DNA from: Candidatus Paceibacter sp.
GTDB lineage: Bacteria > Patescibacteriota > Patescibacteriia > Magasanikbacterales > UBA922
DNA length: 64,000 bases
Direction: 5' to 3'
NCBI GenBank assembly: GCA_020725175.1
Contig: DYFM01000001.1
Coordinates: forward strand, 1,504-65,503
Shown: positions 5,432 to 64,000 of the stretch, piece after piece
How the letters are laid out: each line of letters opens with the position of its first letter
How positions within the stretch are numbered: the stretch's first letter is position 1
Program-made: the position numbers and the translations under genes
Notes under the pieces: model-generated
What the model was told of the DNA's origin: nothing
Seen by the model: the letters and a program-made list of their open reading frames with translations, nothing else
The model's database searches: none

Positions 5432-5470
5432 TTTCCGTGATAGATATGTTGGTGAGTACTGACTCGATCA

Positions 5471-5517
5471 GAAATAACGAAATAACGAAATAAAGAAATA
5501 AAGAAATAAAGAAATAA
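5471..5517. repeat. Tandem heptanucleotide array (CGAAATA/AGAAATA) x ~7 downstream of rplO
   Basis: gaaataacgaaataacgaaataaagaaataaagaaataaagaaataa, read directly in the sequence; preceded by tactgactcga. Confidence 0.85.
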
Positions 5518-14437: not shown

Positions 14438-15013
14438 ATGAAAAGGAGGAACAGAAAACGTAATCGAAAAAACGGATTTGATTATGCGGTGGATGGTTTT
14501 TATTTTATTACCATTTGTGTGAAAGATCGGATGTAATGTTTAGGACGTATTCATAACGGTCGCATGTGCGTCAATCGATTTGGAACAATTGTTTGGTGGC
14601 AATGGAAATGGTTGGAACGTCAATATTCGTTTGTGCGATTACATGAATTTATCGTGATGCCGAATCATGTGCATGGGGTGGTGGAAATATGTCGTTCATC
14701 CGTTCGTCCGACCGTTGGAATGATAATCGATGCGACGTCAACCGTAGGGAGAGGTCTAGACCTGTCCCTACGGTTGGACGAACCGGCGGTTGAACAAAAA
14801 CCATTGTCATTGTCCAATATCATCGGCGCATTAAAAACCACATCATCAAAATTGATTCATGAACATGGTTTACCGTCATTTCGTTGGCAACGATCATTTT
14901 ACGATGTTATTATCCGTGATCCGCGTGCATTATATGGTATTCAACAGTATATTCGAGAGAATCCATTAAAATGGTGGCGAGATAGAAATAATGAAGAAGG
15001 TATATTTATCTAA
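14438..15013 (+). pseudogene. REP-associated tyrosine transposase (RAYT / IS200-like Y1 HUH transposase) interrupted by in-frame TAA at 14534-14536
   Basis: N-part MKRRNRKRNRKNGFDYAVDGFYFITICVKDRM* matches the RAYT N-terminus; downstream in the same frame ...FIVMPNHVHGVV (HUH) and RWQRSFYDVIIRD...YIRENPLKWW (catalytic Tyr region). A near-perfect 38-bp palindrome (14739-14776), nested in a ~90 bp dyad, is inserted in frame. Confidence 0.6.
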
Positions 15014-20824: not shown

Positions 20825-20910
20825 GTGATTTTTTTATAGAACACGGATTGGACGGAATTTGAAAAATAGAGGAAAGAGTCTTTTGGTTCGTATTTATACG
20901 TAGAATTTAT

Positions 20911-22287: not shown

Positions 22288-22464
22288 AGGACGGATTACG
22301 GATAATACGGAGGTACGTACGGATACTAAATTTGCAGAGTAAGCTCGTAAGCAGAATAGGCAGAGTAGGCACATACAGTACAATAGCGTATTCTACGTAC
22401 TCTGCTTTCTTGCATATTCTACTCAACACCACATCCGTACCTCCGTATTATTGTAATCCGTAAA
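22288..22464. repeat. ~175 bp dyad-symmetric intergenic repeat element, copy 1 (scpA/scpB spacer)
   Basis: Terminal inverted repeats ggattacggataatacggaggtacg / cgtacctccgtattattgtaatccgtaa; internal hairpin gcagagtaagctcgtaagcagaatag...tattct..tactctgc; near-identical copy at 60321-60494. Confidence 0.8.
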
Positions 22465-22487
22465 GTTATTCTCAACAGTACATCCAT

Positions 22488-26994: not shown

Positions 26995-27150
26995 TATTGA
27001 ATCTTACAGATAATACGGAGATACGGATGTTGGTTTTCAGATATAGTGAAATGATGAAATAAAAGCTTTTCATTATGATCAATTTACTTCGCTAATTCAA
27101 TGTATAGCAAGATAGATATCTGTAACTCCGTGTTATCCGTAATCTGTACT
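26995..27150. repeat. Diverged copy of the dyad-symmetric intergenic repeat family (parA/parB spacer)
   Basis: acagataatacggagatacggatg ... ctgtaactccgtgttatccgtaatctgta terminal inverted repeats related to copies at 22288 and 60321; central palindrome gaaaagcttttc. Confidence 0.6.
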
Positions 27151-28050: not shown

Positions 28051-28108
28051 CGAAATATCGAAATAACGAAATAGCGAAATAAAGAAATGAAGAAATAACG
28101 AAATACAA
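28051..28108. repeat. Tandem heptanucleotide array (CGAAATA-like x ~8) downstream of parB; same family as 5471-5517
   Basis: cgaaatatcgaaataacgaaatagcgaaataaagaaatgaagaaataacgaaatac, preceded by catactcga. Confidence 0.85.
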
Positions 28109-34117: not shown

Positions 34118-34129
34118 ATAGGTGTTTTA

Positions 34130-34168
34130 GTTGTCAGGTTTGCAAGTTTGCAGGTTAACAAGTTGGTG
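34130..34168. repeat. Left inverted repeat flanking the four-helix-bundle gene
   Basis: gttgtcaggtttgcaagtttgcaggttaacaagttgg; rc resembles right flank caaacttgccaacctgccaacctgtcaacttgcaaac. Confidence 0.6.
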
Positions 34169-34180
34169 TATTGAAACGTT

Positions 34181-34540
34181 TTACTTTTGAACATTAATCC
34201 AGCCACGTAACGTTCTGCCGGTTTCATTACAGTGTTTAGACAATTCTTGATATGTTTCTAACGGTAAGTATTTCAGATCATAGCTTAATAGAAGGAAATA
34301 TTTTACTTCTTCTAGTGAGCTCATGGCTACTTCATAAAAACGAAGGCTTTCTTTTGTAGTGTTTCGGTAAAATCCTTCAACGATATTGGCTGCTACTGAT
34401 ATCATTGCTCGGCGCATTTGGGATGTTACACCATACAATTCTTCCTTTGGAAAATTTCTCGTAACTTTGTATATTTCAAGAACTGTCTTATGTGCCATTT
34501 GCCAGGCTTTAATATCCTGAAAACGCGTTATTGTCGGCAT
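34181..34540 (-). CDS. Four-helix-bundle protein (23S rRNA intervening-sequence protein family)
   Basis: MPTITRFQDIKAWQMAHKTVLEIYKVTRNFPKEELYGVTSQMRRAMISVAANIVEGF... matches the conserved DL[KR]VWQ...E.[YF]GL..Q[ML]RRA..S...NI.EG motif as I recall it. Confidence 0.6.
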   Translation of the reverse strand: MPTITRFQDIKAWQMAHKTVLEIYKVTRNFPKEELYGVTSQMRRAMISVAANIVEGFYRNTTKESLRFYEVAMSSLEEVKYFLLLSYDLKYLPLETYQELSKHCNETGRTLRGWINVQK

Positions 34541-34569
34541 ACTATGAAAAATTACTAGAAACATGTTAA

Positions 34570-34615
34570 GTTACAAACTTGCCAACCTGCCAACCTGTCA
34601 ACTTGCAAACTCCAA
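34570..34615. repeat. Right inverted repeat flanking the four-helix-bundle gene
   Basis: ttacaaacttgccaacctgccaacctgtcaacttgcaaactccaac. Confidence 0.6.
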
Positions 34616-35705: not shown

Positions 35706-35770
35706 TTTTGGCAGTGTAGGCAGAATACGCAAAGTAAGTTTGTAAGCACCTTACGCGTATTCTGCCTACC
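35706..35770. repeat. Perfect 15-bp-arm hairpin (gtaggcagaatacgc...gcgtattctgcctac) related to the internal hairpin of the 175-bp repeat family
   Basis: Shares agtaagNtNgtaagca and gcagaata with copies at 22288/60321. Confidence 0.6.
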
Positions 35771-40733: not shown

Positions 40734-40808
40734 GCTCTCGTCGTTCAATGGATAGGACATGGGTTTGCGGAACCCAAGATCTAAGTTCGATTCTTAGCGA
40801 GAGCACCA
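40734..40808 (+). tRNA. tRNA-Arg (anticodon GCG) with encoded CCA
   Basis: GCTCTCG-TC-GTTC-AATGGATA-GGAC-A-TGGGT-TTGCGGA-ACCCA-AGAT-CTAAG-TTCGATT-CTTAG-CGAGAGC-A-CCA; 7-bp acceptor, U8, GG in D-loop, U33, purine 37, TTC in T-loop, A58. Confidence 0.75.
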
Positions 40809-41160
40809 ATAGAAGAGTCGTTTCCGCCCGAGGCGGACCCGCCTTGGGCGGGCAATGGATAGGACATGGGTTTGCGGAACCCAAGATCTAAGTTCGATTC
40901 TTAGCAGGTGCACAGTGTATAGGTGTTGGTTTGTCGGGTCATCCGACCCGATCGGGTTGAATAACCCGACGGAACCCAAGATCTAAGTTCTCCTCCCGAG
41001 GCGGATCCGTCCTGGGCGGAGATTCTTAGCAGGTGCACAGTGTATAGGTGTTGGTTTGTCGGGTCATCCGACCCGATCGGGTTGAATAACCCGACGGAAC
41101 CCAAGATCTAAGTTCTCCTCCCGAGGCGGATCCGTCCTGGGCGGAGATTCTTAGCGAGAG
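40809..41160 (+). repeat. Composite tandem array: partial tRNA-Arg copies (D-loop-to-T-arm, then anticodon-stem-to-T-arm x2), each later unit split inside the T-loop by a 30-bp GC-rich palindrome, separated by an identical 65-bp palindromic spacer; ends with a duplicate of the tRNA 3' acceptor strand
   Basis: ggaacccaagatctaagttc...gattcttagc recurs at 40770, 40877, 40972, 41097; 125-bp unit 40906-41030 is repeated exactly at 41031-41155; palindromes ccgcccgaggcggacccgccttgggcggg (40824) and tcctcccgaggcggatccgtcctgggcgga (40989, 41114); final cttagcgagagcac repeats the tRNA 3' end. Confidence 0.8.
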
Positions 41161-41164
41161 CACG

Positions 41165-41191
41165 AAAAAACTGCCAATATGGCAGTTTTTT
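41165..41191 (+). terminator. Rho-independent terminator closing the tRNA/repeat unit
   Basis: aaaaactgcc-aatat-ggcagtttttt perfect hairpin plus T6. Confidence 0.75.
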
Positions 41192-41218
41192 AAACTTGTA
41201 GTAAATGTGTGAAAGATA

Positions 41219-43411: not shown

Positions 43412-45613
43412 ATGAAGCTCACCACCAAAGTCAGTCAACTAAATCGCGTGGGGGAAGTGCTTGCTCGGCGATTGAAGCATCTCGGAATTGAAACCGTAGA
43501 GGATTTGTTATTTTACTATCCATTTCGATATGAAGATTTCAGTCAAAGCGAACAGATAAAAAAATTGAAAGAAGGAGAACAGGTGACGGTACGAGGAAAG
43601 GTGGAACTTATCGCCAATAAACGGAGTCCTCGAAAAGGAAAAATTATTACCGAAGCGGTGGTGGCTGATGACGCGGATCGGTTGCGGGTGGTGTGGTTTG
43701 GTCAGCCGTTTATCGCAAAAACAATTCATGTTGGAGATACGGTTTTTTTGTCCGGAAAAGTCTCTCGAGATATGTTTGGGCTGGTCATGAAATCACCGAG
43801 TTATGAAAAAGAAAAGAAACTTGCAAAACAGCACCTTGAAGATATTTCTTCACAGCAAAAAGATGGCGATATTGAACAGACGCACACTGGAAGGTTGGTG
43901 CCGATCTATTCTTTGACTGCCGGGATCACTCAAAAACAGCTACGTTTTTTGATTAGTCAGGTAATTTCACTCTCGTCAACACTGGAAGAATGGTTGCCGG
44001 TAGAAATATTGGAAGGGGCGGACTTGATACCAATTCAGGACGCGGTGAAAGCCATTCATTTTCCCGAAGATCGGACCGATTTGCAGCAGGCAAAAAAACG
44101 GTTGAAATTTGATGAACTATTTATTCTTCAGCTTCGGGCTGAAATGATCCGTCAGTCGATCAAACGCGAAGAAGCGCCGAAACTGGTATTTCAAGAAACA
44201 TTGATCAAAGAATTTGTTCAAAGACTACCGTTTACGTTGACCAATGCACAAAAGATTGCCACCTGGGAAATTTTACAAGATATTCAAAAATCGGAACCGA
44301 TGAACCGTTTGCTCGAAGGTGATGTGGGAAGCGGAAAAACGGTGGTGGCAGCGATGTGTCTGTATAACGCGGTGTTAAACGGGTATCAGGGAGTTTTGAT
44401 GGCACCAACGGAGATACTCGCGAAACAGCATTTTGAATCTATTGTTAGTTTGTTGGGAGAAGCATGTGCTGTCGCGTTGTTGACTGGTTCTGAAACTGGA
44501 AATTGTCAGCCCAAGGCTGATCCGCCTCGGGCGGAGAAATTGGAAATTGGGGAAAAAACAAAAAAGGGGAAAAGAGCGGAATTGTTGAAGTTTGTAAAAA
44601 ACGGAACAGCGAACATTATTGTTGGTACCCATGCGTTGTTGGTGGATGAGGTGAAGTTTAAACAGTTGGGATTGGTGATTGTGGATGAGCAGCATCGTTT
44701 TGGAGTAGAACAGCGAAAAACAATCCGCGAGAAGTCCGGGGTTGGTGGAATGACACCGCATTTCTTGAGCATGACGGCGACTCCAATTCCGCGTTCATTT
44801 GCGCTGACGCTCTACGGCGATTTAGATTTATCAATTATCAATCAAATGCCGGCCAATCGAAAGCCTATTCAGACACGACTCGTTGATCCGCATCAACGGG
44901 AGAAAGCCTATGGATTTATTCGATCTCAAGTGAAAGAAGGGAGGCAGGTATTTGTGATTTGTCCGTTGATTAGCAAGGAACAAGGAACAAGGAACAAGGA
45001 ACAAGATGTTGAGCCATCGCGTTTACTATCTTTGCAGGATGAGAGAAAGACCGTGATGGAGGAATATGAAAAATTGAAAAATCATGTTTTTCCGGATTTG
45101 CGTGTGGGGTATTTGCACGGGAAAATGAAATCGGCGGAGAAAGATGTGATGATGAAGCAGTTTGCGGCCGGAGAGATTGATATTTTGGTGTCGACGTCGG
45201 TGGTTGAGGTTGGGGTAAATATTCCAAATGCCTCGGTCATGATGATTGAGGGGGCGGAGCGTTTTGGACTCGCGCAGTTGCATCAGTTTCGGGGGCGAGT
45301 AGGGCGAAGCGAGTATCAGTCGTATTGCTTTTTGTTTACCGAAAGTCAGTCGGACAGCTCGCGAGGGAGACTGGAATTTTTTGAAAAAACTCTTGATGGT
45401 TTCAAACTGGCTGAATATGATCTCAATACGCGAGGTCCCGGAGAAGTCTATGGTACGTCCCAAAGTGGCCTCATGAATTTTCGGTTGGCAAGTATGAAGG
45501 ATACTGCTATAATCAAACTGGCCCGAGATACGGCCCGGGGAATTGATTTTGAAAAATACCCGTTACTTAAGGAAAAAGTAAAAGAATGGGAGGGGAGAGT
45601 ACATTTGGAATGA
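43412..45613 (+). CDS. recG: ATP-dependent DNA helicase RecG, with two in-frame insertions (palindromic element; heptamer repeat)
   Basis: Wedge/OB N-terminus, helicase motifs GDVGSGKT (I), DEQHRFG (II), TATPIPRS, QFRGRVGR (VI). Confidence 0.9.
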   Translation: MKLTTKVSQLNRVGEVLARRLKHLGIETVEDLLFYYPFRYEDFSQSEQIKKLKEGEQVTVRGKVELIANKRSPRKGKIITEAVVADDADRLRVVWFGQPFIAKTIHVGDTVFLSGKVSRDMFGLVMKSPSYEKEKKLAKQHLEDISSQQKDGDIEQTHTGRLVPIYSLTAGITQKQLRFLISQVISLSSTLEEWLPVEILEGADLIPIQDAVKAIHFPEDRTDLQQAKKRLKFDELFILQLRAEMIRQSIKREEAPKLVFQETLIKEFVQRLPFTLTNAQKIATWEILQDIQKSEPMNRLLEGDVGSGKTVVAAMCLYNAVLNGYQGVLMAPTEILAKQHFESIVSLLGEACAVALLTGSETGNCQPKADPPRAEKLEIGEKTKKGKRAELLKFVKNGTANIIVGTHALLVDEVKFKQLGLVIVDEQHRFGVEQRKTIREKSGVGGMTPHFLSMTATPIPRSFALTLYGDLDLSIINQMPANRKPIQTRLVDPHQREKAYGFIRSQVKEGRQVFVICPLISKEQGTRNKEQDVEPSRLLSLQDERKTVMEEYEKLKNHVFPDLRVGYLHGKMKSAEKDVMMKQFAAGEIDILVSTSVVEVGVNIPNASVMMIEGAERFGLAQLHQFRGRVGRSEYQSYCFLFTESQSDSSRGRLEFFEKTLDGFKLAEYDLNTRGPGEVYGTSQSGLMNFRLASMKDTAIIKLARDTARGIDFEKYPLLKEKVKEWEGRVHLE
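44510..44536. mobile_element. GC-rich palindromic element in frame inside recG (cccaaggctgatccgcctcgggcggag); reverse complement matches the 40824 element
   Basis: rc ctccgcccgaggcggatcagccttggg vs 40821 tccgcccgaggcggacccgccttgggcggg; encodes ...CQPKADPPRAEK... in an insertion absent from typical RecG. Confidence 0.65.
44974..45005 (+). repeat. (CAAGGAA)x4 heptanucleotide tandem repeat inside recG coding sequence
   Basis: caaggaacaaggaacaaggaacaaggaacaag encoding KEQGTRNKEQ in a loop insertion. Confidence 0.9.
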
Positions 45614-60320: not shown

Positions 60321-60494
60321 TTACGGATTACGGATAATACGGAGGTACGGATAATTGTTTTGCAGAGTAAGCTAGTAAGCAGAATAGGCAGAGTAAGAGT
60401 ACAAAACACCATAGCTTATTCTGCTTACTCTGCGTACTTGCATATTCTGCCCGGTTCAACATCTGTATCTCCGTATTATCCGTAATCCGTAAAA
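60321..60494. repeat. ~175 bp dyad-symmetric intergenic repeat element, copy 2 (clpC-like/pgm divergent spacer)
   Basis: ttacggattacggataatacggaggtacgg ... gcagagtaagctagtaagcagaataggcagagta ... tattctgcttactctgc ... ctccgtattatccgtaatccgtaaa; matches 22288-22464. Confidence 0.8.
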
Positions 60495-63876: not shown

Positions 63877-64000
63877 GCTTGTTCAGTTATAGCGAAAAAA
63901 AACCACAATAATAAGTATTTTCTTCGGTACTTCATTTTACGGATTAAAGTTTCTTTATTTTGCTATTTCATCATTTCGTACCGGAATGAACTACAACATC

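Follow-up and report, generated by a model that had tools for sequence, protein, structure and literature searches.

MITEs of the Correia, ERIC and RUP types are AT-rich, inverted-repeat intergenic elements of 100-200 bp that are co-transcribed with their neighbours; RNase III cleaves their hairpins, which affect the fate of the mRNA, their terminal inverted repeats (TIRs) are defined, and Correia elements have a TA duplication and an IHF site. The STRR sequences of cyanobacteria are intergenic arrays of tandem heptanucleotides, with several word families per genome and small elements nested in the repeats. Arrays of short words are also bound by proteins; omega of pSM19035 binds arrays of 7-bp heptads, and ParG binds ACTC boxes with a period of 8 bp.

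The palindromic repeats of the REP/BIME and REPIN-RAYT systems are non-autonomous and intergenic, often lie within operons, and as REPIN hairpin doublets are believed to move through a single-copy HUH Y1 transposase that acts in trans (PMC3116915). In Geobacter metallireducens, 21 pairs of class 2 'global regulator sites' were described in 2009, in which three tandem TCTCCGTS[Y] repeats lie on opposite strands at gene junctions; related class 1 arrays are found beside ISGme8, an IS110-family element, and the authors guessed, without a test, that the arrays bind IHF or HU (PMC2700814). The intervening sequences (IVS) of 23S rRNA in Coxiella, Leptospira, Salmonella and others are insertions with complementary termini that form a long stem. 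They have no known transposase, their origin is described as unclear and their sporadic distribution suggests horizontal spread; both origin and means of spread have stood unexplained for more than 30 years, and some carry an ORF for a PF05635 four-helix-bundle protein (PMC4990558).

The ~175-bp repeat described here is a non-coding, imperfect palindrome at the DNA level made of tandem words of 7-9 nt, and it is a member of a large, barely described class of gene-junction insertions in its host, a Candidatus Magasanikbacteria genome (candidate phyla radiation, CPR), and in the relatives of that host. The window, by which we mean the whole 64-kb stretch of DNA under study, was scanned together with 20 kb of flanks (84 kb). 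The initial annotation had claimed a repeat family of at least three copies and a fragment, and all four sequences are present, far above chance. Three full copies of the ACGGA-arm repeat were found in the 64 kb, at 22288-22466 (copy 1), 60321-60494 (copy 2) and 26995-27150 (copy 3), along with two fragments (35710-35769 and 20836-20858). The 17-mer TTACGGATAATACGGAG has five matches in the window at ≤3 mismatches where 0.12 are expected, and a 34-nt inner motif occurs twice where none is expected. Copies 1 and 2 are 79% identical over 135 ungapped nt, the arms of copy 2 (60321-60352 and 60461-60492) are 94% complementary over 32 nt, and the spacers holding copies 1-3 have dyad scores 10-19 sd above those of shuffled sequence. 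The copies are 155-180 bp long, with 105-128 nt between the arms, and have no ORF. The description as a dispersed, non-coding family with inverted ends is borne out.

A further ACGGA copy was sought in the 10 kb on each side of the window and none was found there; several new word dyads were found instead. The outer-arm pattern TTACRGATAAYACGGAGNTACRGAT had no matches in a metagenome collection that excludes the source sample, and a search of viral contigs with two arm patterns gave isolated matches in coding-like sequence, with no arrays or dyads and no link to phages. Assembly breaks fall within copies of the repeat. The features are as follows.

20836..20858, + strand: remnant ATAGAACACGGATTGGACGGAAT, upstream of the DUF218-scpA-scpB genes, a terminal 13-mer match
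22291..22326, + strand: copy 1, outer left arm, made of ACGGA words in tandem (ACGGATT ACGGATAAT ACGGAGGT ACGT ACGGATAC)
22334..22370, + strand: copy 1, inner left arm, GCAGAGTAA GCTCGTAA GCAGAATAG GCAGAGTAG GC, period 8-9
22387..22422, + strand: copy 1, inner right arm, contains ttgcatattct, which on the opposite strand reads as the GCAGAATAT GCAA words
22430..22463, + strand: copy 1, outer right arm, CACATCCGTACCTCCGTATTATTGTAATCCGTAA, more decayed than its counterpart in copy 2, 1 nt having been deleted
27004..27032, + strand: copy 3, outer left arm, TTACAGATAATACGGAGATACGGATGTTG
27033..27117, + strand: copy 3, interior, TGAAATGA TGAAATAA ... TTTTCATTATGATC, without homology to the interiors of the other two copies
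27118..27148, + strand: copy 3, outer right arm, ATCTGTAACTCCGTGTTATCCGTAATCTGTA
34125..34615, - strand: cargo-bearing element of another word family, with a four-helix-bundle/23S-rRNA-IVS gene at 34181-34564
35710..35769, no strand assigned: solitary GCAGA-word hairpin in the dprA-pth spacer, GGCAGTGTA GGCAGAATAC GCAAAGTAA ...
60321..60357, + strand: copy 2, outer left arm, TTACGGA TTACGGA TAATACGGA GGTACGGAT AATTG
60362..60397, + strand: copy 2, inner left arm, GCAGAGTAA GCTAGTAA GCAGAATAG GCAGAGTAAG
60415..60450, + strand: copy 2, inner right arm, CTTATTCTGC TTACTCTGC GTACTTGC ATATTCTGC, TRF period 9
60457..60494, + strand: copy 2, outer right arm, CAACATCTGTATCTCCGTATTATCCGTAATCCGTAAAA

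The outer arms consist of tandem ACGGA words, in the series TTACGGA TTACGGA TAATACGGA GGTACGGAT with TRF periods of 7 and 9, and the inner arms of copies 1 and 2 of tandem GCAGARTAN words. The build is modular: the outer dyad of ACGGA(T/G) words (~2 x 38 nt), which stands alone in related genomes as an element of ~90 nt, encloses a GCAGARTAN-word hairpin of ~95 nt in copies 1 and 2 and a GAAAT-word hairpin in copy 3. The ends previously read as terminal inverted repeats are indeed inverted, but they are arrays of tandem 7-9-nt words rather than simple TIRs, and the ttgcatattct segment, which had been listed as a separate third feature, is really a stretch of the 3' inner arm; read on the opposite strand it gives GCAGAATATGCAA, the word series of the 5' inner arm. 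The diverged copy between parA and parB shares only the outer arms, which here enclose another word hairpin (TGAAATGA/TGAAATAA). Copy 2 is the best preserved of the window copies. Conservation between copies 1 and 2 is patchy, at 80-100% in the word arrays and 55% in the loop, and the spacing of the cores in the window copies is irregular (7/9/8). The solitary GCAGA hairpin has a perfect 15-bp stem (35716-35730 paired with 35755-35769), and the terminal 13-mer of the remnant at 20836-20858 is identical to the termini of ACNGAT dyads at two related loci, L010 and L041. Most words contain TAA or TAG, all three frames being covered at periods 7-8, and the words may have been selected for their richness in stop codons.

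The gene names assigned earlier (scpA/scpB, parA/parB, clpC-like, pgm, dprA and pth) were confirmed by Pfam. Copy 1 lies in the scpA/scpB spacer and copy 3 in the parA/parB spacer; these two and the hairpin fragment are inside co-directional gene strings in which no terminator was found. Copy 2 is flanked by divergent genes, the clpC-like gene on the minus strand and pgm on the plus strand. The suggested preference for spacers within operons is borne out by copies 1 and 3 and the fragment; copy 2, which is not within an operon, departs from it.

The same architecture is widespread in the host. Dyads with z>4 are present in 9 of the 29 window spacers of at least 60 nt, and several more have arrays of period 8 or 9; about half of the larger spacers in the host carry word arrays or dyads, and dozens of other word families show the same dyad architecture. 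More word dyads lie in the 20 kb outside the window, including one in the 580-nt S10-L3 spacer. The initial annotation had held that copies confined to this DNA would argue against an element family; related elements built from the same word families do occur in other Magasanikbacteria, and the families recur in distant lineages. Identity among the ACNGAT dyad arms of L010, L020 and L041 is 67-88%, compared with 50-70% for the flanking scpA/scpB DNA of these lineages, which stays flat toward the junction, and a 13-nt terminus, ATAGAACACGGAT, is common to lineages with ~60% nucleotide identity in the flanking genes. Words of the GCAGARTAR type are also present in L020 and L057. Across distant lineages, the arms show better conservation than the flanking genes do. 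Cognate arms of the ACNGAT dyads are no more similar to each other than non-cognate arms, and the AC[AGT]GAT cores keep a spacing of 9, 9 and 10 nt in both arms, with variable spacers, across lineages; conservation across lineages falls on the words and not on the base pairs.

The related loci (L-numbers) were all collected around scpB, and the scpA-scpB junction could be compared in 80 of them. The spacer is bimodal, being either tight (≤30 nt) or filled from stop to start by a word dyad of 70-175 nt. About half of the loci have a spacer of -4 to 30 nt, and the orthologous junctions of L011 are tight, at 6 and 8 nt. The long spacers are word dyads which run from just past the stop codon to just before the ATG. 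The elements occupy non-coding DNA, with the stop codon of one gene on one side and the start codon of the next gene on the other. Sister lineages with ScpB 82-89% identical include empty and filled junctions (L040 vs L041 and L031; L019 and L022 vs L023; L017 vs L018; L043 vs L057), and L049 and L054, at the same level of identity, have different fillings at the same junction. The parA-parB junction shows the same presence/absence behaviour. The elements are gained, lost and replaced on a time scale of 10-20% divergence of the flanking genes, and they decay by unpaired point changes. Allelic replacement of the whole locus by homologous recombination was considered and rejected; in its simple form it is unsupported because nucleotide identity does not rise near the junction between lineages that share ACNGAT dyads.

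The gene-carrying members of the class hold small genes known from rRNA intervening sequences. In the window, inverted GTTTGCAA-type word arrays at 34138-34166 and 34582-34610 flank a four-helix-bundle gene (TIGR02436/PF05635), and in L044 the scpA-scpB junction itself harbours a GxxExxY/PF13366 gene. Inverted word arrays with z of 4.6-10 also flank eight more cassettes, found in Magasanikbacteria, other CPR and one Bacteroidetes genome. Such arrays flank all ten of the cassettes examined, which encode either the four-helix-bundle 23S-IVS protein or the GxxExxY nuclease; those with PF05635 are the window cassette and five more. Related cargo is paired with related words, as ACAAGTT words accompany the four-helix-bundle gene in the window and in L098, and TGCTAAT/ATGCAAAT words accompany GxxExxY in L044 and L114. 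No protein flanked by ACGGA or GCAGA words was found in the 84 kb. A search of the literature on Magasanikbacteria repeats, PF05635, TIGR02436/TIGR04256 and GxxExxY turned up no account of flanking word arrays. To our knowledge, the two small protein families carried by IVS, which are very numerous in genomes, have no assigned function, and we know of no nuclease or recombinase activity of four-helix-bundle proteins. A RAYT-like mobiliser was also considered and rejected. The ORF at 14438-15013, the only gene in the 84 kb with HUH and Y motifs, is interrupted by an in-frame TAA at codon 33 and scores 39.8 bits against an NCBIfam cut-off of 80; it is not flanked by the repeat, the nearest copy of which is 7 kb away.

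The explanation we favour, with moderate confidence, is that the repeat is an ORF-less, mobile, IVS-like palindromic element, selfish or near-neutral, of a class that we name 'inverted short-word arrays'. Each arm comprises three to five degenerate tandem words of 7-9 nt, with the arms opposed as a long imperfect palindrome. Movement or copying would take place at the DNA level and would depend on a protein that acts in trans and recognises the words, in a manner analogous to transposase and MITE or RAYT and REPIN, and the four-helix-bundle and PD-(D/E)xK 'GxxExxY' cargo proteins of sister elements are candidates for this role. New modules would enter preferentially at the centre of existing dyads. 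The intra-operon copies, with no terminator present, would be co-transcribed, and their predicted fold is a stem of 60-75 bp that may sequester the downstream start region and is a putative RNase III substrate; the 23S rRNA IVS are a known precedent for such behaviour. Any effect on the expression of scpB, parB, clpC or pgm is regarded as a by-product and not as the reason for the element. Some observations sit against a mobile element: the strong ACNGAT arrays are mostly beside scp and par genes, which could mean a host function, the patchy conservation of copies 1 and 2 could reflect constraint instead of neutral decay, and three full copies are known, from 84 kb only.

It is unlikely, in our assessment, that the arrays are instead host operators or centromere-like sites, with ACNGA(T/G) words bound by a small protein or serving as a non-canonical ParB site that controls the chromosome-segregation operons, on the model of the omega heptads and the ParG boxes. 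Such a role would fit the 9, 9, 10-nt spacing of the cores, which is kept where the flanking genes are saturated, and the existence of purely direct arrays (L073, with seven direct cores, the last just upstream of the scpA ATG) beside inverted ones. It would also fit the dyads that stretch across the parA 5'UTR, between the -10 box and the ATG, in L035, L048, L053 and L019, the multi-pair ACNGAT clusters outside the window, every one of which is ≤36 nt from scpA, scpB or parA, and the window sites, three of four being at scp/par junctions. Also in keeping with such a role, canonical parS was absent from the 64-kb window around parAB, and in 718 kb of related loci its matches were no more frequent than chance predicts. 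However, the association with scp and par is partly ascertainment, because all loci were gathered around scpB, and the element is missing in sister lineages (L040, and many with spacers of -4 to 15 nt). Another word family occupies the same junction elsewhere, which, like the absences, is unexpected for an essential operator or centromere, the spacing in the window is irregular, copies 1 and 3 are within operons and not at promoters, and dozens of unrelated families in a ~1-Mb-class genome would need dozens of cognate regulators. No cognate small DNA-binding protein was identified, and likenesses to DnaA, Fur, CtsR/CIRCE and LexA boxes, which were partial (7/9 at best) and found by eye, were dropped. 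The repeat had also been called MITE-like, which is partly right, as insertion polymorphism, small size, inverted ends, dispersed copies and the assemblies that break inside them would all be expected of a deletion derivative of a DDE-transposase IS, moved by cut-and-paste in trans through its TIRs, with the words as transposase-binding sites. We nevertheless consider a classical MITE of this kind improbable. No direct repeat indicative of a target-site duplication, for which a search had been proposed, was detectable at copies 1-3 or at the filled-versus-empty sister junctions, and the one flank in common, the 'TA' beside copies 2 and 3, is part of a TACGGA/TACAGA word and not a duplication. 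No element with the same ends and a transposase was found in the 84 kb, each of the many word families would need its own transposase in a small CPR genome, and the cargo between such arrays is a four-helix-bundle or PD-(D/E)xK protein and not a DDE transposase. The lack of a duplication would suit palindromes generated locally, with slippage making the words, template switching (quasi-palindrome correction) making or extending the arms in situ and ectopic recombination accounting for shared copies, all without dedicated mobility machinery. Perfect tandem runs in one arm, such as (AATCATA)x4 in L064, solitary arrays without a partner arm (5470-5517, 28051-28105, L057 and L049) and the very many different words in one architecture are also consistent with this. 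But copies 1 and 2 share a complex nested arrangement of 135 nt at loci 38 kb apart, the same families with the same 13-nt terminus recur despite the divergence of the flanking genes, and related words accompany related cargo proteins, making a purely local origin even harder to credit.

A transcribed, structured RNA, the other possibility raised initially, was unsupported, and a functional mRNA hairpin, selected because it aids processing, stability or translational coupling, or else a gene for a small RNA, is the least probable of the explanations weighed here. Copies 1 and 3 and the fragment are very probably transcribed, because they are in co-directional gene strings without a terminator; the stems predicted for the RNA have very high stability, at -69 to -96 kcal/mol, and the stop-to-ATG geometry of the dyads in the relatives would make translation of the downstream gene depend on that of the upstream gene. 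Nevertheless, when the window, the element and Geobacter-type matches were compared with Rfam 15, under both gathering and E-value thresholds, nothing but sub-threshold or spurious miRNA-hairpin matches came up. Among the 12 pairs changed between copies 1 and 2, none was compensatory, three were kept by a one-sided change and nine were broken. Stem mismatches on the sense strand are balanced between G·T and A·C (36 vs 31 in relatives and 16 vs 19 in the window, 52 vs 50 in total), and the better predicted fold is on the antisense strand for copy 1 and on the sense strand for copy 3. Furthermore, the same word in opposite orientation in both arms is a property of double-stranded DNA, and copy 2 sits between divergent genes.

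Returning to the mobile, IVS-like element, a broader proposal is that the 175-bp family, the other word dyads of the host, the Geobacter sites and the four-helix-bundle and GxxExxY cassettes, including the 23S IVS, form one class, in which cargo would recognise the words, the PD-(D/E)xK nuclease would drive copying and ORF-less members would be mobilised in trans. We offer this tentatively and think it more doubtful than the reading of the repeat itself. If true, it would define a widespread and so far unrecognised mobile cassette with inverted arrays of 7-9-nt words at its ends. The boundary architecture is the same in cassettes and in their ORF-less relatives, the elements turn over rapidly at defined CPR gene junctions, and the shared boundary, the pairing of words with cargo and the turnover lead to a testable model of protein-word recognition and nuclease-driven copying. 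The elements also break metagenome assemblies and inflate operon spacers, as in the S10-L3 gap, and they should alter mRNA processing and the translational coupling of essential genes where very few regulators are known. Were the operator or partition explanation true, the arrays would indicate an unrecognised regulator of chromosome segregation in a clade without canonical parS near parAB.

Compared with the systems described above, the window family differs from the STRR sequences in that those are not described as inverted pairs enclosing cassettes, and from the Correia, ERIC and RUP elements in its ends, which are short-word arrays, in the absence of a target-site duplication and in having no sequence relationship and no Rfam match. 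It resembles the REPIN-RAYT systems in its intergenic palindromes and in the RAYT-like ORF of the window, but there is no conserved GTAG-type head (GTAG stands before copy 1 alone), each arm is an array of 7-9-nt words and not a single palindrome of 20-40 nt, and the RAYT-like gene, besides its interruption, falls short of the family cut-off and has no flanking repeat. The likeness to the Geobacter arrays is closer, as both are pairs on opposite strands with three to five tandem 7-9-nt repeats each and a variable distance within the pair, and both are found between adjacent genes, including genes within operons (pdhA/pdhB and proB/proA in Geobacter). The class 2 consensus TCTCCGTS[Y] matches the right arm in the window, ATCTCCGTA TTATCCGTA ATCCGTAA, with one mismatch each for ATCTCCGTA and TTATCCGTA, and the window arms have the architecture that defines class 2. 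A pattern made from the window arms retrieved class 2-type dyads from Geobacteraceae and Desulfuromonadaceae genomes and from one Burkholderiaceae genome, from which shared ancestry is not inferable because the matches were selected by that pattern. The two differ in phylum, in spacing (8/9 in Geobacter, 7/9/8 here) and in the nested build of the window elements, which combine two word families. In contrast to the 23S rRNA IVS, the window family is ORF-less and lies between protein-coding genes and not in rRNA, none of which was found in the window; it nevertheless shares with them the complementary termini predicted to fold into a long stem, and the PF05635 ORF that some IVS carry is the cargo of its sister element at 34138-34610.

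The repeat described in the initial annotation was confirmed, with corrections, in the scpA-scpB spacer (copy 1, 22288-22466), between the clpC-like gene and pgm (copy 2, 60321-60494) and in the parA-parB spacer (copy 3, 26995-27150), where its sequences are present as reported. The outer-arm 17-mer TTACGGATAATACGGAG gave five matches at ≤3 mismatches against 0.12 expected, a 34-nt inner motif occurred twice against 0 expected, and copies 1 and 2 share 79% identity over 135 ungapped nt. The dyad scores of the three copy-bearing spacers lie 10-19 sd above shuffles. Pfam identified the flanking genes as ScpA/ScpB, ParA/ParB, ClpC-like ATPase, phosphoglucomutase, DprA and Pth; the proposed placement in operon spacers does not extend to copy 2, which lies between divergent genes, outside any operon.

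Every element is a single long imperfect palindrome built from short tandem words. The outer arm reads TTACGGA TTACGGA TAATACGGA GGTACGGAT and the inner arm GCAGAGTAA GCTNGTAA GCAGAATAG GCAGAGTAG. As the reverse complement of the 3' inner arm reads as this inner-word series (GCAGAATAT GCAAGTAC GCAGAGTAA GCAGAATAAG), the segment ttgcatattct, previously listed as a separate third feature, belongs to that arm. Copy 3 retains the outer arms alone, enclosing an unrelated TGAAATGA/TGAAATAA hairpin, and the fragment at 35710-35769 (dprA-pth spacer) is a GCAGA hairpin without outer arms. The build of the elements is modular, with one module nested in another.

The window lies on a 196-kb JGI metagenome contig, which ScpB homologues assign to Candidatus Magasanikbacteria (CPR). 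About half of the window spacers of at least 60 nt are occupied by arrays with a period of 7-9, built from many different words and standing alone or paired as dyads; such arrays continue beyond the window on the same contig (L014). There, the 580-nt spacer between rpsJ (S10) and rplC (L3) (L014 4907-5486) is packed with GC-rich hairpins as well as word arrays. Within the window, rplP (L16) is followed by a spacer (618-779) that holds a dyad with 41-nt arms; both spacers are atypical of the S10/spc ribosomal-protein operon. Solitary GAAATAAN octamer arrays of 6-7 units (window 5470-5517, 28051-28105 and 63950-63978; L014 4950-5070) are all A-rich on the sense strand of adjoining genes, and in the closest relative, L009, these words also fill the spacer upstream of scpB. 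At L014 612-1552, CAGATAG/CAAATAA heptamers form a dyad (1437-1552) directly after a tyrosine recombinase (Phage_integrase) gene. In two related metagenome loci (L057 1117-1160, L020 2289-2370) the first word of the array either provides the stop codon of the gene upstream or directly adjoins it; TAA or TAG is present in most words, so that arrays of period 7-8 place stops in all three frames.

The scpA-scpB spacer was measured in 80 metagenome loci that encode a ScpB homologue: in about half of them its length is -4 to 30 nt, and about 25 have one of 70-175 nt. The long spacers consist of word dyads or arrays, beginning directly behind the stop codon and ending shortly ahead of the ATG. Lineages with 82-89% ScpB identity differ in having the junction empty or filled, or filled with different word families, and the parA-parB junction follows the same pattern; one Magasanikbacteria MAG has spacers of 6 nt (scpA-scpB) and 8 nt (parA-parB). 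The elements thus show insertion behaviour and fast turnover, and no target-site duplication is visible in the window copies or between filled and empty junctions of relatives. Assembly breaks fall within copies. A sister-sample contig (L015 1-1370 against L014 6800-8320) is 100% identical from rpsS on and 75-80% identical upstream (rplW, rplB), where its spacers are 2 and 8 nt vs 103 and 48 nt in the window's genome; either the assembly is chimeric or the strain is recombinant, with the breakpoint in a spacer.

The same word families recur in other lineages. ACNGAT dyads with the terminus ATAG(A/C)AC(A/G)C(A/G)GAT occupy the scpA-scpB junction of L010, L020, L041 and L031, an ACNGAT array lies 5' of scpA in L073, and the parA 5'UTR is an ACNGAT dyad in L035, L048, L053 and L019; a 13-mer identical to the terminus is found at window position 20836, and GCAGARTAR arrays occur also in L020 and L057. 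In the sister lineage L040 the scpA-scpB junction is empty. All six arms of L010, L020 and L041 space their cores at 9, 9, 10 nt, and these arms are 67-88% identical between lineages; the adjoining scpA/scpB DNA reaches 50-70% only, and no rise in identity was found close to the junction in lineages sharing these dyads. Cognate arms are no more similar than non-cognate ones, and what is conserved is therefore the word, on double-stranded DNA, rather than the base pair.

Three further features of the window are as follows.

34125-34615, folC-dprA spacer: cassette with a four-helix-bundle/23S-rRNA-IVS protein gene (TIGR02436, PF05635)
14438-15013: RAYT-like HUH/Y1 transposase ORF (PF01797, 27.8 bits; NCBIfam REP_Tyr_transpos, 39.8 bits, under cut-off)
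40734-41218: tRNA-Arg(GCG) and adjoining repeats

The first is an IVS-like cassette outside rRNA, its gene lying between inverted GTTTGCAA-type octamer arrays (34138-34166 and 34582-34610). In the scpA-scpB insert of L044, inverted TGCTAAT arrays likewise enclose a GxxExxY (PF13366, PD-(D/E)xK) gene, and all eight further cassettes of either kind, from Magasanikbacteria, Roizmanbacteria, Jacksonbacteria, other CPR and one Bacteroidetes genome, have inverted word arrays at their flanks (z 4.6-10). The architecture is associated with two cargo families, related words accompany related cargo, and no paper describing word-array flanks was found in the literature on these cassettes and repeats. One GxxExxY cassette (L119) lies immediately upstream of another tyrosine recombinase gene. 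In L100 (1870-2247) a long GCCAGTGG/CCAGAAG array, which the assembler left unclosed (run of N), stands between two tandem four-helix-bundle genes.

The RAYT-like ORF has an in-frame TAA at codon 33 and a GC-rich nested palindrome in its interior (about 14738-14775). The 3' part of the tRNA-Arg(GCG) re-occurs downstream as a 95% copy (40853-40913), and the same region holds GC-rich palindromes (52% GC vs 42% for the window) and a perfect 125-bp tandem duplication (40896-41145); it may represent a further repeat family or the scar of an integration. A related GC-rich palindrome (44506-44551; cf. 40823-41144), inside a 733-aa ORF (43412-45613), is reminiscent of the GGGACCG elements that lie within genes of G. 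metallireducens.

We give roughly even chances to the ~175-bp repeat being an ORF-less member of a DNA-level, mobile, IVS-like class of palindromic insertions bounded by inverted word arrays. The words would be recognised by trans-acting proteins, and nesting would occur at the dyad centre. That the arrays are instead host operator or partition sites at the scp/par genes is rather unlikely: the placement statistics (ACNGAT clusters at these genes) and the failure to find parS speak for it, but the element is absent from sister lineages and the word families are a multitude. Canonical parS (TGTTTCACGTGAAACA, ≤3 mismatches) had no match in the 64 kb around parAB and only three 3-mismatch matches, at chance level, in 718 kb of related Magasanikbacteria loci. 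The MITE-like reading put forward initially is partly borne out, by the inverted ends and the insertion behaviour but not by any visible target-site duplication, and a classical MITE is improbable. Origin in situ by slippage and template switching is slightly more doubtful still.

Least probable, at long odds, is a functional RNA, and the earlier suggestion of a structured RNA is unsupported. No Rfam family matched in scans of the window, the element or the Geobacter-type dyads. Copy 1 folds better on the antisense strand and copy 3 on the sense strand, and stem mismatches are balanced (G·T:A·C 36:31 in relatives, 16:19 in the window). Among 67 pairs compared between copies 1 and 2, 53 are unchanged, 3 carry one-sided changes that keep pairing, 9 are broken and none is compensatory. 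Nothing indicates selection on an RNA fold. As no terminators were found within the elements, co-transcription and hairpin formation are expected; for the mobile palindromic insertion, RNase III processing or translational coupling could arise as side effects.

The main value of the element is as a lead toward a broader element class, so far undescribed. Five dyads came out of a genome-wide pattern scan: Geobacteraceae/Desulfuromonadaceae genomes account for four of them and a Burkholderiaceae genome for the fifth. Three were read, and their arms consist of nnACGGAG words in tandem. Such dyads have their counterpart in the 'class 2 global regulator binding sites' of G. metallireducens, where gene junctions such as pdhA/pdhB carry 21 pairs of three TCTCCGTS[Y] repeats on opposite strands; ISGme8, an IS110-family element, lies beside related class 1 arrays in that genome (PMC2700814). 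rRNA intervening sequences, some with a four-helix-bundle ORF between their complementary termini, are stated to have an unknown origin (PMC4990558). The element resembles these known kinds, namely intergenic palindromic repeats, Geobacter-type paired tandem-repeat sites and IVS.
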